A DNA stretch of 64,000 bases from NCBI RefSeq assembly GCF_057098645.1, contig NZ_JBXSPU010000002.1. One strand, written 5' to 3'. The stretch is from a plasmid. Positions within the stretch are counted from its first letter, which is position 1. Each line of letters opens with the position of its first letter. Positions 9,001-15,000 of this stretch are shown one piece after another. The position numbers were made by a program.

Positions 9001-12000
9001 CAGATTGCATTGATGCCATCATGACTGATGGAATTAGCACTGATGCCTCATTTACTATTTTAAATGCATTAATTTCTCGCACGGAAATGATGTCCTCTGG
9101 AGAGTATGCAATTGAGCATGATCGTTCTAAAAATCTGCTAACTTACAATGAACGCCTTAACTTTTTGATCAATTGTGATAAGGAAGGAGAGTTTAAACAT
9201 TCCGAGATAGCAACTATCTCATTCCCTCTAAACCTTAAAAAAGTCTATCAAATTGATTCGAAAGAAAGCCCAAGCGTGCAATTGTGTGATGTTCTTATAG
9301 GTGCATGTATTGAATCAGTTTATCAATTAATGGACTCTAAGGTGCTCAATCAAAATTCCGTTCTTTCACTTTACCAAGATAGCCAGTTAATACATTTCAT
9401 ACCTGATATAGATTTTGAAGGACAGAAAAAATTTAGGAAAGGCAGTCAAAGTGAGGAGTATCTTACGTTTATTCAAAATGAAATCTACTCTAGTAAACTT
9501 TAAAAAAAGGTTCTGAAAATCAGAACCTTATCGCACCACCAGACATAGAAATGATTCGTGAAGCTATTTTATACAGAACCAAAAACGCAAAGGCCAAAAC
9601 AGTCATGATATCTAATACCATAGGCATTACCTCCACTAACGTATTCAAAACAGCAGTTCAGATTGCAGAAGTGGATTGTTTTCGTTCATCAATATCTCCA
9701 AGAAAATAAATATGTACCTGATTATAGAAAATAAAAATCTCTCATTGTTTGATTAACTGTGTAGAAGATAAAATAAATACCCAAAAGCAATAGTGGATAA
9801 TGCTAACACCACACAATTAGCAATGTACCAGATCAATGTTTGGAACTTAAGCCGCCAGATCATTTCAGGCTCTTTACCGCTTGAAACTGAGCCTCTACCT
9901 TCACTGACTAACTTATCAGCATTTTTAAAATGCTGATAAGTTGAACCAGCACGAAAAGTAAGCCATGCCATACCTAACATTATGAATCCAAATAAATAAA
10001 ATGCTTTTTCTAAGTAAAAATCTACCGCTGATACAACATCCAGATTTTCCATTTGGTAATTCTCAATATTGTTGGTGAGTTAAAGATTTTTTTGTTGGCT
10101 AACTGTCTGAAAGCCCTAATTATGGTCATTACAATCCAACCAATTAACAGGTTCCCCAAGAAACCGTGTCAATGCTGCTTTAGCGTATTGTGGCTTAGTG
10201 TAATATCGAGGGAACCAGCCATCGTAATTTTGTGTTCCTTTGCGACGATATTCAGGCTCTACAGACAGTTTACATCCCTGGCCGTGAGGCGAGATGGTAA
10301 AGGTGACCCCAGTATTCGAATCAGTACTAAACAAGCTATTTTTCATTGACCCTTCTATGTCCCTCATGGCTACGCAGGGACACAGTACGTGATGTAAAAT
10401 CATAATGCTAGGTTATCAGGCCACAGAAAATAGTTTTCTCCTTTTTTATATCGATTTGGCTTGGCTTCTGCCCCTGCCGCTATGCCAGCATCAGTCAATA
10501 TGTATTTTCCTTCTACGTCCATGAGATATCCAGCTTCGATTAATTTTTTATATAGAGATAACAAATCAGTTTTATGATTTTTTGCTAGATTTGTCGAAGT
10601 GAGTTTTGAATTTGTATTTAAATCAGTAATCAATCCATTTTGATTTGTTAATGGTTCTTCATGAAAGGCTGAAGTGAAGTCGGATGACTCTTTATTAGTT
10701 TTTTCACTTTCTTTTGAACCTGTTGTTTCTTTATCTGTTGTTAGTGGCTGAATGTTATCTGTGCTGATTCTGATCAGTCGCTGAGCTTCATTTAACGATG
10801 AAGTGTATGCATCCTTCTCCTGCTCCTTAATAATTAACACTCCAATTTCATGGTTATTAATCTGACTAAAATCATAAAGGTTTAGACTGCACACAATACA
10901 TTGATTTTCATTGGCATATAATTTTGCATGGAGGTTTTTACAAAAACTAAGGCGTACAAAAGGCAGGTTTGTTAACCATTCATATTCTTTAGAGTTTAGT
11001 TCTGATTTCCCATAAACTATTCTGATGTCAACTTTTAGTCTATTTTTATCTTCGATCAGCTCTTTAATGCGATTACTAAGCTTAAGGTATGGGCTAATGA
11101 GAATTATCCTTTCCTCAGCTTCAGTGATTGTTTTTTCAAGTTGATAATTCAAACCAGTGGTGTTGAGTACTTGTACCATGTATACCTCATTTTAATTTTT
11201 AATGATGCCTTGAGAACGGCAAGATTTTTTATAACTATGCAACCTTGTTTTCAAAACCCAGCGTCCGAGGATTCTGAAGAACAAAGTCTCTGACGCCCGA
11301 TATGCATGCCTTGATGATTATATCAAAGTGCGGCTGCGCCTCCGATACCAAATTTCCTGTATTATCCAGTAGCAATATGACCCCTAGCGATTTTACAAGC
11401 TGGTACTCAACTGTCGACCGCTCTAAAGCGATCTGGAGCATGTAAATAGTTTCGCCGGATACATTCCCATCTATTCCAGTCACCGTTGCTGTGCAAGCAG
11501 CCTGCTGAGCTGGGGAATGAGGTGAATAATAGTCATACCAGTAATCGGCCATCACCGTTTCTTTCCTCGGTTGCAGGTTTTTTACGGGCCATTTCACCCA
11601 GACGGAAGACAAGTTTTCAGAAACAATTGAATACCGTAATGCCTTTAGAGGGTCATCAAATTCACCACGGGACCATGTCGCATCAAATTCTGACTGAAAG
11701 GTCAATGGGTCTATTACTGCAATAAAATCAAACTGGTCTTTATTAATTTTAGAGGCTCGCTCATTCATAAAGAAAAGGCCAAGCCTGAAACCTTTATCAC
11801 TTCTCCAGCTGGCACCGGCTGGCTGATAATCCGAATTGATAAATGGGCGGAGTTGCTGGTCTGTATGCAGAAAGATAAATGACGGTGCTAGGGTTTTATT
11901 CCCATTCTTGATTGGATTAACATAGAGACGTTCGCCTGCGCTGAGCATTTCAATAATTGCCTTTGAAATAACAACAGAAGCTGAAGGTATGCAGACGTTG

Positions 12001-15000
12001 CCGCCCTCCTCCATCGAATGCACCAAATCCCCATCCGGGCCCGTAGTAACGTGTCGCAGACACGTTGGGCAGCGGTGAGTCTCTCCTGGTAAAATTGGCC
12101 ACGAAAGATGTCCATCGCTATTAAGCGCAATTTTCAATAAAGGATGCTGTCTTGTCATCGCGGTCACCCCCTGCTTTTCGTCTTTTGAGGTTTCTGGTTT
12201 TGCTGGCGCCACTCCCAGGGGGCAACGGGATTAGGATCTACCCAGAGGCCTTTAACTGCTTTCTGAGCTGAAGCTTCGAATTTCAGATAGTTTGGGACGA
12301 TGGCATTACCGTCAAACCGGTATACCCATGCATAGCCGCTGTCTACCATTGAGGCGTTTATGTCATAACCATCAAGCCAAATGGTTCCCAGCATCCTGCC
12401 GTAAATATCAGGTCCGTGGTCTATTACCGTAATATTCTGTGCAGCAATCGCGGCGCTCAACGCTTGTTTAGACTTTTGTCCAAAGGCCTGCTTACTTTCG
12501 GGGGCATCAATACCGTACAAGCGGATTTTGATGCTTGTATTCTGACCATCGAGCGCGGTGATTGTGTCCCCGTCGATAATTTTTACCACTTTCGCTTCAA
12601 ATGACGATTGGGCAGCCAGAGTTGCCGCCGGGAAAAGGACGATTAATGTCGGCAAAAGTAACTTTTTCAACAGAGTCATACGTTCTCCCTGAATTAGATG
12701 GTTCGTAGTAACAAATAAGTCGTGTGATTTGACGCGCTTATTGTACCAATTAGAAACTCGGCGATTTTCCGTTAACGGAGGCAATTTGAGTGGATTAAAA
12801 ATTTTAATTCAGGAGATGAAAATAAAGGCCTTTAACAAAAAATTGAATTTTCACCGCGTGGTAGTCTGAGGTCCTAAATTAATCACATTTCATGGAGTAA
12901 GGATGTACAACGATAGAACTGATCCTGCAATAACAGCATTGCTTAATGATGAGACGCCTTCCTCTATCCATAAATTACTGGTGCAGGTTGCAAGTATCTA
13001 TGACGTAAAAGATTTGGCTGCGCAACTTAATGCTGCAACCGGCAGCGACTGGTCGAGGGCATCACTTATTCGCCAGATCAAAGGTTCAGTTAATGAATGT
13101 CGAATAACCCAGGAAGAATATCATTATCTTCGATCGTTGCTCCCCTCACGCCCAGCAGACTATGACCAGAAATTTTTCCGTTTTATTGACTTGTTTGCTG
13201 GGATCGGTGGCCTCCGGAGTGGTTTTGACGCCATTGGCGGGAAATGCGTGTTTACAAGCGAATGGAATCAGTTCTCCCGCCGGACATACAGTGCAAACTG
13301 GTACTGTGACGAGACTGAGCACTATTTCAACTCAGATATCCGGGACATTACACTCAGTAATCTTCCCGATGTTTCGGATGACCAGGCCTATGCTTCTATC
13401 GATGCATCCATCCCAGACCATGATGTTTTGCTCGCAGGTTTCCCATGCCAACCGTTCAGTATTGCCGGTGTCAGCAAAAAGAACTCTTTGGGCCGAAAAC
13501 ACGGCTTTGAATGCGACACCCAGGGGACCCTTTTTTTTGATGTCGCCCGGATCATCCGAGCCAAACAGCCTGCCATTTTCGTTCTTGAGAACGTAAAAAA
13601 TCTGAAGAGCCACGATAAGGGAAATACGTTCCGCATCATCATGAAAGCGCTTGATGAACTTGGCTACGATGTTGCCGACTGCGATGCTCACGGATCAAAG
13701 GACCCCAAAATAATTGACGGTAAGAACTTCAGGCCTCAGCACCGGGAACGTATCGTGTTGGTTGGATTCAGGCGCGATCTGAAGCTCCATGATGGCTTTT
13801 CGTTAAGTGGTGTATCGGCTCTTTATCCTTCACGACGGCCAACCCTTGGGGAGCTGCTGGACGCTGAGGTCGATAGCCGTTACATCCTTTCTCCAAAGCT
13901 CTGGGAGTACCTTTATAACTACGCTAAAAAGCACCAGGCAAAAGGTAATGGATTTGGCTTCGGACTGGTAAATCCACTTGATAAATCAGTTGTTTGCAGA
14001 ACACTCAGCGCACGGTACTATCGTGATGGCTCTGAAATTTTGCTAGACCGTGGATGGGATCACAGCATAGGCGAAAAGGACTTTAATGATCCTGTAAATA
14101 TGGCAAGGCGCCCGCGCCGTTTAACCCCGCGAGAATGTGCCCGCCTTATGGGATTCGAGCAACCGGGAAAAGTTACTTTTCGCATTCCAGTCTCTGATAC
14201 CCAGGCCTATCGCCAGTTCGGCAATTCGGTCATCGTCGACGTATTTGCGGCCGTGGCCAGTTTGCTTCGAAGCCGTATTGAGATCGCCGTTGCGGCTCGT
14301 CTCAAGGGAGAGTTTGAAGCGGCATCATAGTAATTCTTCTGTGTGATTTTGCAGGTTAACGTAATGGTTTATTTCACTAATATTGTAACTTTTACACAGA
14401 AAAAAACCTGGGCAGGGAGAGAAAGGCCTGCTTCAGTCAACTCCTTCATCAGGAGGTAATGATGACGTATTTTGATTCAGCAGAAGACCTCACCATTTCA
14501 AAACAGAGAGCTCTGCAAGAGCTTGCAAAACATGGCGTCGTAGCCAGCGACATAGACGTATTTTTTTCCGAGTTGGGTGAGAGGGAAGAGTACAACGCGC
14601 AAGAAGTATTGATATGGCTAGGCTATTAGTATTTTTAAATTTCAGGAGGTCCCATGGGCCAGAAGTTTGCAGTTTTTATTGCTTACGATGACGAACCAAA
14701 CACGAAACGATACTCGGCTGAATTTCAGACACAGGATGAGTATGTAAAGGGATGGCAGTCGGCCCTGAAGAAAGCACACCACACGTCCGGGCAGAAATCT
14801 GTGATCAGCTGCGGATGTCGGGGAAAAGGCGCAAAGCGTCTCTACGTCCGCTCACTACCAAACAGTGATACGTTCATCCTGATTAAGGCTGCAAATACAG
14901 GCACTGAGCATGATCCATCGTGTGTGTTTTTCGACCTTGATGCCAGGCATACAGGGTTAAAGGGTTATGCCAGCAATGTTGTACGCATCAACAATGAGGG

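Follow-up and report, generated by a model that had tools for sequence, protein, structure and literature searches.

Three adjacent genes on an IncHI1 plasmid, two of them encoding probable nucleases of different folds, raise the question of whether they work as one module or were brought together separately. We addressed this question in a 64,000-nucleotide (nt) stretch of plasmid DNA (NCBI RefSeq assembly GCF_057098645.1, contig NZ_JBXSPU010000002.1; the whole of this stretch is referred to as the window), in which the genes of a staphylococcal nuclease-type protein (SNase), a 307-amino-acid (aa) protein, here called the partner, and a protein of the phospholipase D (PLD) superfamily follow one another in this order on the minus strand. 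A preliminary description, made from the sequence by itself, had taken them as a nuclease-rich operon that could serve DNA entry, exclusion or defense. The comparisons presented below favor instead, with a probability of roughly 0.6, a composite locus made of a conserved IncHI backbone pair, the SNase and its partner, and an independently mobile PLD cassette. The features that carry this argument are the following:

12164..12679, minus strand: SNase-type nuclease, 171 aa (Pfam PF00565)
11235..12158, minus strand: SNase-linked partner, 307 aa, CoiA-like in its predicted fold (ATG at 12158; HRCPTC at residues 28–33)
10400..11179, minus strand: candidate single-HKD nuclease of the PLD superfamily, 259 aa (Pfam PLDc_2)
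10349..11265, no strand assigned: low-GC segment of 917 bp that contains the PLD gene (blastn against plasmid L003)

All the coordinates of the preliminary description were confirmed: the three genes share one strand, diverge from a dcm operon, and are separated by 5 nt (CCGCG) between the SNase and partner genes and by 55 nt between the partner and PLD genes; the HRCPTC motif was also found in the 307-aa protein. The 2.6-kb region spanning the three genes shows 100% nucleotide identity with the S. Typhi CT18 plasmid pHCM1 and with numerous further IncHI1 plasmids, and 283 plasmid records match it, 174 of them at 99% identity or more. Judged by these sequence matches, the window is IncHI1 backbone. 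In pHCM1 the products are annotated as 'thermonuclease family protein', 'hypothetical protein' and 'phospholipase D family protein', and the genes belong to the maintenance/accessory part, with repE, hha and hns nearby, and lie outside the transfer region. A search of the literature on IncHI1 thermonucleases, plasmid DUF1173 proteins and R27 nucleases found no functional study of the SNase, the partner or the PLD gene. A scan for terminator-like hairpins detected none between the three genes, the nearest strong one being at 9529–9507, past two more same-strand open reading frames (ORFs), and a promoter scan of the locus gave matches at background level.

The SNase gene and its linked partner

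The SNase matches PF00565 over residues 51–147 (E = 3.1e-22), and thermonuclease chains of the PDB match it at E values of about 1e-9. Its residues D38, R53, D58, E61 and R95 align to D21, R35, D40, E43 and R87 of the S. aureus nuclease, and the Ca2+-binding and catalytic residues of this family are intact in the window protein and kept in all the orthologues that were read. The N-terminus, MTLLKKLLLPTLIVLFPAATLAA, resembles a signal peptide; a by-eye reading showed a basic region, a hydrophobic stretch and then small residues in seven of the seven orthologues read. RP4 ParB, a plasmid example of the PF00565 family, was reportedly found by Grohmann et al. in 1997 to be a Ca2+-dependent nuclease; unnamed 'thermonuclease family' genes of F-type plasmids belong here too. 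The subfamily present in the window differs from the general family in its putative signal peptide and in the fixed CoiA-like partner downstream in IncHI1 and IncHI2 plasmids.

At least 5,000 plasmid records contain an SNase homologue. Such genes are commonplace plasmid cargo and very frequent in enterobacterial plasmids, and the view that the locus is unusual for a plasmid backbone was not supported. In several plasmids the gene stands without the partner: between finO and hha in F-type plasmids, between DUF1173 and hns in a Klebsiella IncFIB/IncHI1B plasmid, and after the gene of an unrelated 330-aa protein in an E. kobei plasmid. Because SNases 39–52% identical to that of the window occur without a partner in these plasmids, while the 48%-identical SNase of locus L006 has one, we concluded that the partner is not an obligatory immunity factor.

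To follow the distribution of the partner, the 307-aa protein was used in a tblastn search, which detected homologues in 1,410 plasmid records. The identity was 99% or more in 200 records (IncHI1), 80–90% in 57, including the IncHI1B-typed relative L003, 60–80% in 26, and below 60% in 1,125, mostly IncHI2. The partner gene directly follows the SNase gene both in L003 and in the IncHI2 plasmid L002, and both pairs are divergent from dcm, a 56-aa ORF and DUF1173. An SNase gene is also found immediately upstream of four metagenomic relatives of the partner with 20–42% identity (P0145, P0146, P0153, P0159), and in two of the four (loci L007 and L009) the divergent dcm–DUF1173 operon is kept. The gaps between the SNase and partner genes in the loci read were −4, 2, 5, 5, 11 and 17 nt. 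The SNase and the partner are a conserved pair of IncHI1, IncHI2 and related plasmids.

The partner family is very small: a set of 5.8 billion proteins yielded 23 clusters, and one of 1.84 billion yielded 24 representatives. Its three most distant relatives (E values of 2e-8 to 2e-6) have no SNase neighbor and lie beside H-NS or ParAB genes on plasmid-like contigs. The contig of the distant relative P0161 (L010, 4836–9816) encodes two proteins of ~800 aa with bacterial Ig-like domains as well as ParAB, which recalls the RSP Ig-like conjugation protein of R27. No paralogue of the partner was found elsewhere in the window. In the IncHI2 plasmid L002, a short ORF located ~3 kb downstream of the partner gene (8868–9125) carries the core W-x-S-x-KG-F motif (hidden Markov model E = 1e-8), and it looks, from this sequence match, like the relic of a second, diverged partner copy. 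Altered versions of the pair were also observed. In a Serratia IncHI2 plasmid (L005, 4581–5153) a deletion has left just ~50 C-terminal partner residues, fused to the SNase, and the resulting protein, P0155, is annotated as a single 'nuclease'; in the E. fergusonii IncHI2 plasmid L004 the SNase, dcm, DUF1173 and partner genes all appear fragmented, by decay of the whole module or by assembly errors.

SNase genes have been described in comparable company on other conjugative plasmids. In the pLS20 family, the putative establishment genes include those of C5-methyltransferases as well as SNase-like ones (PMC8708921), and in the rhizobial plasmid pLPU83a a thermonuclease gene forms an operon with the gene of a DNA-binding-type WGR protein, which adjoins the DNA-transfer genes and is co-induced with them (PMC13055273). 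These loci resemble that of the window in having an SNase gene near a DNA methyltransferase gene or together with a DNA-binding-type protein; however, the plasmids and the partner proteins are unrelated, and the likeness is one of analogy, not of homology.

The PLD gene and its family

The PLD gene is absent from the L002 and L003 loci, and approximately 1,200 of the 1,410 partner-bearing plasmids (about 86%) do not carry it beside the partner gene. When the window was compared with L003 by blastn, the flanks were 93–94% identical, but the 917-bp segment at 10349–11265 had a counterpart of only 65 bp. This segment contains the PLD gene, its Shine-Dalgarno sequence and the last ~10 codons of the partner gene. 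The partner tail that it encodes, RTLGFENKVA, is unique, whereas the diverged relatives P0002, P0004 and P0007 share RMRSVE(H/R)QITS.... The GC content is 0.484 for the SNase gene, 0.457 for the partner gene and 0.338 for the PLD gene, compared with 0.482 for the window. The unique C-terminal tail of the partner and the low GC led us to favor an insertion in the R27 lineage. These results suggest that the PLD gene is a later add-on, an AT-rich mobile cassette separate from the backbone pair (the probability given above for the composite locus covers this point). The mosaic assembly that had been suspected from the GC shift is supported by the same values and by the missing counterpart in L003, whereas the idea of a three-gene operon acting as one module is not supported, given the many partner-bearing plasmids in which no PLD gene adjoins and the close relative that lacks the segment.

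A different arrangement was observed in four IncHI-type plasmids of Klebsiella/Raoultella, which have DUF1173, a divergent SNase gene, the PLD gene, an optional DUF4942 gene and H-NS, and no partner gene. Compared with the window, their SNases are 50–52% identical and their PLD proteins 56–59% identical; the nucleotide similarity is limited to the PLD coding region, and the PLD gene is again of lower GC than its neighbors. A PLD gene has thus come to occupy the place behind the SNase gene in no fewer than two lineages. This recurrence may reflect an ancient linkage with later losses, an insertion hot spot or a functional affinity. Regarding the co-occurrence of the three genes in other plasmids, the SNase–partner pair is widespread and the SNase and PLD genes are adjacent in a second lineage, but the trio is not a conserved unit.

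The PLD protein contains a single PLDc_2 domain (residues 16–128, E = 3.4e-7) and matches phrog_9329 over its full length (E = 1.6e-69). More than 3,600 homologues of about 230–260 aa have both of its domains. The motif H84-x-K86-x4-E91-x6-S98-x-N100 is present once per chain, with the D of HxK(x)4D(x)6GSxN replaced by E, and residues H84, K86, E91, S98, N100 and E111 are invariant in 30 homologues. We take these residues to correspond to those of the Nuc active site, which Stuckey and Dixon are said to have described in 1999. An acidic variable linker (isoelectric point, pI, of 4.3) leads to a basic C-terminal domain of about 70 aa (pI 8.9) with the conserved pattern KLTSxxLAK...L...GYL...LTxxGxxxGGE...W; the AT-rich gene and the extra C-terminal domain of the preliminary description are therefore both found. 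This C-terminal domain is probably DNA-binding. It had no significant match in Pfam or the PDB, the family profile matched no PDB sequence, and a Pfam search with 30 family members gave weak extra matches only, all with E values above 0.01, to families that include TrmB and several of the winged-helix type; the domain also matches the N-terminus of the PADLOC candidate family PDC-S69. The N-terminus of the protein, MVQVLNTTGLNYQLEKTITEAEER, has no hydrophobic segment and no signal peptide. The small single-HKD size, the basic C-terminal domain and the carriage by phages and plasmids suggest that the protein would act as a nuclease and not as a lipid-directed enzyme.

The family is present in 626 plasmid records and in seven Vibrio Inoviridae genomes, where the paper on these inoviruses leaves the gene undiscussed; it also occurs beside Zot/secretin prophage genes in V. 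vulnificus and Hafnia, and alone among housekeeping genes in an Acinetobacter chromosome. Like Nuc (pKM101/Salmonella), BfiI and the single-gene END-type defense nucleases, the window protein has the HxK...(D/E)...SxN motif once in each chain, and its active site is therefore expected to form in a dimer. BfiI, SauUSI and END combine an N-terminal PLD nuclease with a C-terminal DNA-recognition module (PMC12191111), and this modular architecture is paralleled in the window protein, although its C-terminal domain, of only about 70 aa, resembles neither B3 nor EndoIII. A restriction enzyme of the BfiI type was rejected, given that no adjoining methyltransferase was found in the Acinetobacter, Vibrio, Hafnia, inovirus and Klebsiella contexts and no match to a B3-like domain was obtained. 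Nuc has a signal peptide, and the lack of one in the window protein sets it apart from periplasmic endonucleases of the pKM101 Nuc type.

Assignment to DrmC of the DISARM system was also discarded: the PLD-domain similarity is weak, with 18.8 bits in NCBIfam against a cut-off of 133 and an E value of 5.9e-6 in PADLOC, and neither the DISARM helicase nor a DUF1998 component was found among the neighbor genes scanned. The only other DISARM-like component is the C5 methyltransferase encoded by dcm, which matches the DISARM methylase DrmMII more weakly than it matches the orphan-methyltransferase model. PADLOC identified no known defense system at the locus, only the weak DrmC matches and PDC-S69. 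In the K. pneumoniae protein P0043 the PLD N-terminal domain is joined to the C-terminal domain of H-NS, which fits a deletion between the PLD gene and hns in Klebsiella IncHI plasmids; we did not accept this protein as evidence for a DNA-binding C-terminal domain, since it is probably a deletion fusion with the neighboring hns gene.

The predicted fold of the partner protein

Searches of Pfam, NCBIfam, PADLOC, PHROGs and the PDB (phmmer) gave no match to the partner, in agreement with its earlier placement outside any characterized family. The further statement that it has no recognizable domain is correct for these sequence searches, but not for the predicted fold. AlphaFold2 gave a poor model (pLDDT 60) when 16 close homologues were aligned, and a better one (pLDDT 78, mostly 80–95 over the first 190 residues) when distant relatives brought the alignment to 24 sequences. 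Three parts are predicted in the better model: a CxxC...H...C zinc ribbon (C30, C33, H47, C56), a CoiA-like alpha/beta domain at about residues 57–190 and, past a disordered linker, a four-stranded sheet with a helix at about residues 220–297. When the model was compared with AFDB50 by Foldseek, entries named 'Competence protein CoiA' came next after the family's own members, with E values of 4e-5 to 8e-4 over about 200–240 columns. Two programs agreed, on predicted structures, that CoiA is the best structural match outside the partner family.

CoiA is composed of a zinc finger, a PD-(D/E)xK domain and a C-terminal region, in this order; the nuclease domain is atypical (PD...ExQ), and the protein is a single-stranded DNA (ssDNA) endonuclease proposed to resolve transformation D-loops (PMC1189080; bioRxiv 10.1101/2024.02.06.579203). 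The parts of CoiA from Bacillota (CoiA_N, CoiA_nuc PF06054 and CoiA_C) follow the same order as those of the partner, namely zinc ribbon, nuclease-type alpha/beta domain and C-terminal region, and in the model a PD-(D/E)xK-type fold does follow the zinc finger of the partner. In contrast, the Pfam profiles CoiA_N, CoiA_nuc and CoiA_C did not match the partner, whereas with the same tool a real Bacillus CoiA scored E values of 1e-14 to 1e-61. In hhalign, the zinc ribbon alone of the partner family aligned, weakly (E = 0.0076), with the Bacillus CoiA alignment, and no profile alignment of the nuclease domain was obtained, either globally or with domain restriction. About 18 of the 24 family members, the window protein among them, have the CxxC...H...C motif, which is degenerate or missing in P0019, P0020, P0153, P0162 and P0163.

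Among the 24 members of the partner family no acidic residue is invariant within residues 55–195; the invariant residues are L72, P92, W118, S120, G123 and W187, and K122 is present in 23. The residue that follows P92 is S in 16 members, G in 3, D in 3 and A in 2. By manual mapping of the motif order, A-P92-S93 lies where CoiA has PD, and S120-x-K122 where (D/E)xK or ExQ is expected; with this manual residue correspondence, the catalytic acids of CoiA (PD...ExQ; D95 and E105 in S. pneumoniae) are not conserved in the partner family. On the basis of the model, the partner is CoiA-like in fold and outside the CoiA family as set by profiles and catalytic residues. Because the fold matches CoiA but the profiles and the catalytic acids do not, we treat the partner as a CoiA-like protein that is probably non-catalytic, as judged from its residues.

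Genomic neighborhood and alternative explanations

The genes that surround the three nuclease-related genes were examined as well, and the relevant features are these:

10116..10346, minus strand: small ORF of 76 aa (ORF76), intact and with a conserved start in the window, L003 and IncHI2
9753..10052, minus strand: 99-aa protein with two hydrophobic segments, as read from its sequence; conserved in L003 and IncHI2
9507..9529, minus strand: terminator-like hairpin, 10-bp stem and T run (consensus scan only)
12680..12902, no strand assigned: divergent intergenic region between the SNase gene and dcm, 223 bp (ORF map)
12903..15949, plus strand: divergent operon with the orphan C5 cytosine methyltransferase gene dcm (12903–14330), a 56-aa ORF (14459–14629) and DUF1173 (14654–15949)

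ORF76 (MKNSLFSTDSNTGVTFTISPHGQGCKLSVEPEYRRKGTQNYDGWFPRYYTKPQYAKAALTRFLGEPVNWLDCNDHN) is unannotated in the RefSeq records of pHCM1, L002 and L003, and has no family match; its product is 84% identical in L003 and 52% in IncHI2. In L003 it starts 22 nt past the stop codon of the partner gene, and it is probably the next gene of the backbone transcription unit. The 99-aa protein is 96% identical in L003 and 34% in IncHI2. From the conservation of these downstream ORFs in L003 and IncHI2, we propose that the backbone string consists of the SNase, the partner, ORF76 and the 99-aa protein. Within the gene of the latter, a perfect 16-bp inverted repeat with a 1-nt spacer (AACTTATCAGCATTTT A AAAATGCTGATAAGTT, 9910–9942) was observed, which is unique in the window and is kept in L003 with one mismatch. 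On the other side, the dcm product matches the orphan-methyltransferase model of PADLOC at E = 2e-212, and the divergent arrangement of dcm, the 56-aa ORF and DUF1173 relative to the SNase and partner genes is found in the window/pHCM1, L002, L003, L007 and L009. No conserved operator-like motif was detected in the dcm–SNase intergenic region beyond close relatives, where the region is poorly conserved.

Further from the locus, a 228-aa protein (18769–19455, plus strand; DUF6884 in pHCM1) matches DpdC in PADLOC at E = 2.9e-55. DpdC is part of a 7-deazaguanine DNA-modification system; no other dpd genes were seen near 18769–19455. Past DUF1173, a 406-aa coiled-coil protein (16245–17465, minus strand) showed weak SMC/Rad50/JetC-like matches and occupies the same place in pHCM1. 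A 479-aa insertion sequence transposase (6966–8405) lies just upstream of an intact 348-aa DUF3800 gene (8457–9503), which in pHCM1 is cut to its last 214 residues by ISVsa5.

Several points weigh against the composite reading and the loss of catalysis in the partner. The only pointers to the direction of the 917-bp difference, insertion or deletion, are the partner tail and the GC content, and the adjacency of the SNase and PLD genes in Klebsiella/Raoultella plasmids that have no partner may mean that this link is old or functional, and not accidental. In the partner, an active site of an unorthodox kind could be made up of E70 and D144 (20 of 24 members each) and D150 (18 of 24), all three of them fairly conserved, and the mapping of APS to PD and of SxK to ExQ/K was manual. 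The Klebsiella-type adjacency thus keeps alive, at a low probability, the view that all three genes form one nuclease module for defense, exclusion or DNA entry. Such a module would fit the shared strand, the short gaps of 5 and 55 nt with no terminator-like site between the genes, the DrmC and PDC-S69 matches of the PLD protein and a neighborhood rich in DNA-modification genes (dcm and the DpdC-like gene). We nevertheless consider it quite improbable, because some 1,200 partner-bearing plasmids have no PLD gene beside the partner, the PLD-bearing Klebsiella plasmids have no partner, most occurrences of the PLD family, in chromosomes and inoviruses, are solitary, the PLD gene is equipped with a separate Shine-Dalgarno sequence and differs in GC content, and no known multi-gene defense system in PADLOC matches. 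The fairly conserved acids, together with the CoiA-like fold, the nearly invariant K122 and, in the C-terminal domain, the invariant E236 and D265 (22 of 24), would also suit an active partner in a true two- or three-nuclease locus, and PD-(D/E)xK enzymes are known to relocate their catalytic residues (PMC1189080). This is unlikely, given that the CoiA-like domain has no invariant acidic residue, the PD aspartate occurs in 3 of 24 members and the hand-matched acid position of (D/E)xK is an invariant serine.

It is somewhat less improbable, yet still rather unlikely, that the SNase–partner pair and the divergent orphan dcm–DUF1173 operon constitute an establishment module expressed soon after entry into a new host, in which the methylase would shield the plasmid against restriction and the incoming single strand, or recombination intermediates, would be dealt with by the CoiA-like protein. 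The divergent arrangement persists down to 20–40% partner identity, in a Klebsiella IncHI plasmid the homologous locus has psiA at a distance of ~3 kb, CoiA acts on ssDNA and D-loops (bioRxiv 10.1101/2024.02.06.579203), and both the putative establishment genes of the pLS20 family (PMC8708921) and the co-induced pLPU83a operon (PMC13055273) offer parallels; but these are drawn from unrelated plasmids, an exported SNase would have no obvious job in such a module, and the pHCM1 locus is away from the transfer genes and oriT, near repE, hha and hns. The translational coupling of the SNase and partner genes, which persists at spacings of −4 to 17 nt as identity falls from 100% to about 20%, could also be explained if the partner were a cytoplasmic inhibitor, immunity protein or chaperone that keeps the SNase inactive before export, as in NucA–NuiA, barnase–barstar or NucA–Nin of B. 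subtilis. The signal sequence on the SNase and its absence from the partner are consistent with this role, as are the basic character of the SNase (mature pI 8.8) and the mildly acidic one of the partner (pI 5.9; C-terminal domain 4.8). It appears unlikely, however, since SNase homologues occur in at least 5,000 plasmid records and the partner in 1,410, SNases 39–52% identical to that of the window stand without a partner (even if the 48%-identical one of L006 has it), distant partner relatives beside H-NS or ParAB have no SNase, and the partner, with 307 aa, a zinc ribbon and a nuclease-like fold, does not resemble the known small nuclease inhibitors. A more far-reaching proposal, speculative and quite unlikely in our estimation, is that the SNase, the CoiA-like pseudo-nuclease, ORF76 and the two-helix membrane protein form an undescribed envelope-spanning IncHI system, which would link the breakdown of DNA in the periplasm with the recognition of incoming ssDNA in the cytoplasm, as an entry-exclusion or anti-phage/anti-plasmid barrier, with the PLD protein as an extra effector in some lineages; EndA and CoiA in transformation provide a loose analogy.

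The composite locus is therefore the reading that we prefer. The comparisons show how the genes are built, conserved and linked, which folds the proteins resemble and which motifs they keep; export, enzymatic activities, DNA binding and every biological role are inferred. The backbone pair would be a tightly coupled unit, probably reaching ORF76 and the 99-aa membrane protein, and transcribed away from the orphan dcm–DUF1173 operon. Its SNase would be a Sec-exported, Ca2+-dependent, non-specific enzyme whose nucleic-acid substrate would be periplasmic or extracellular, and its partner a cytoplasmic protein with a CoiA-like zinc ribbon and a PD-(D/E)xK-type domain without a conserved catalytic acid, which most likely binds single-stranded or branched DNA and does not cut it. 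The PLD cassette would have entered the R27/pHCM1 lineage between the partner gene and ORF76. Its product is predicted to be a cytoplasmic single-HKD nuclease that dimerizes like Nuc or BfiI and is tethered to a small basic DNA-binding domain; carried by filamentous phages and other IncHI plasmids, it probably acts alone in mobile-element competition.

The plasmid has been known for 25 years and two of the three proteins belong to well-known superfamilies; what is modestly new is the identity of the partner family and its strict linkage to the SNase. IncHI plasmids (R27, pHCM1, the IncHI2 carriers of mcr-9 and tet(X4), and pNDM-MAR types) are major multidrug-resistance vehicles whose backbone is mostly annotated as 'hypothetical'. 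In this backbone, an apparent three-nuclease operon is resolved into a conserved pair and a mobile single-gene nuclease, the orphan 307-aa family is given a testable identity, CoiA-like and with catalysis probably lost, and the PLD gene is placed in a large, unstudied family common to plasmids, filamentous phages and chromosomes. If the region has no effect on DNA entry, establishment or phage resistance, it would be ordinary backbone cargo; if the pair or the PLD gene does affect any of them, this would bear on the spread of IncHI plasmids.

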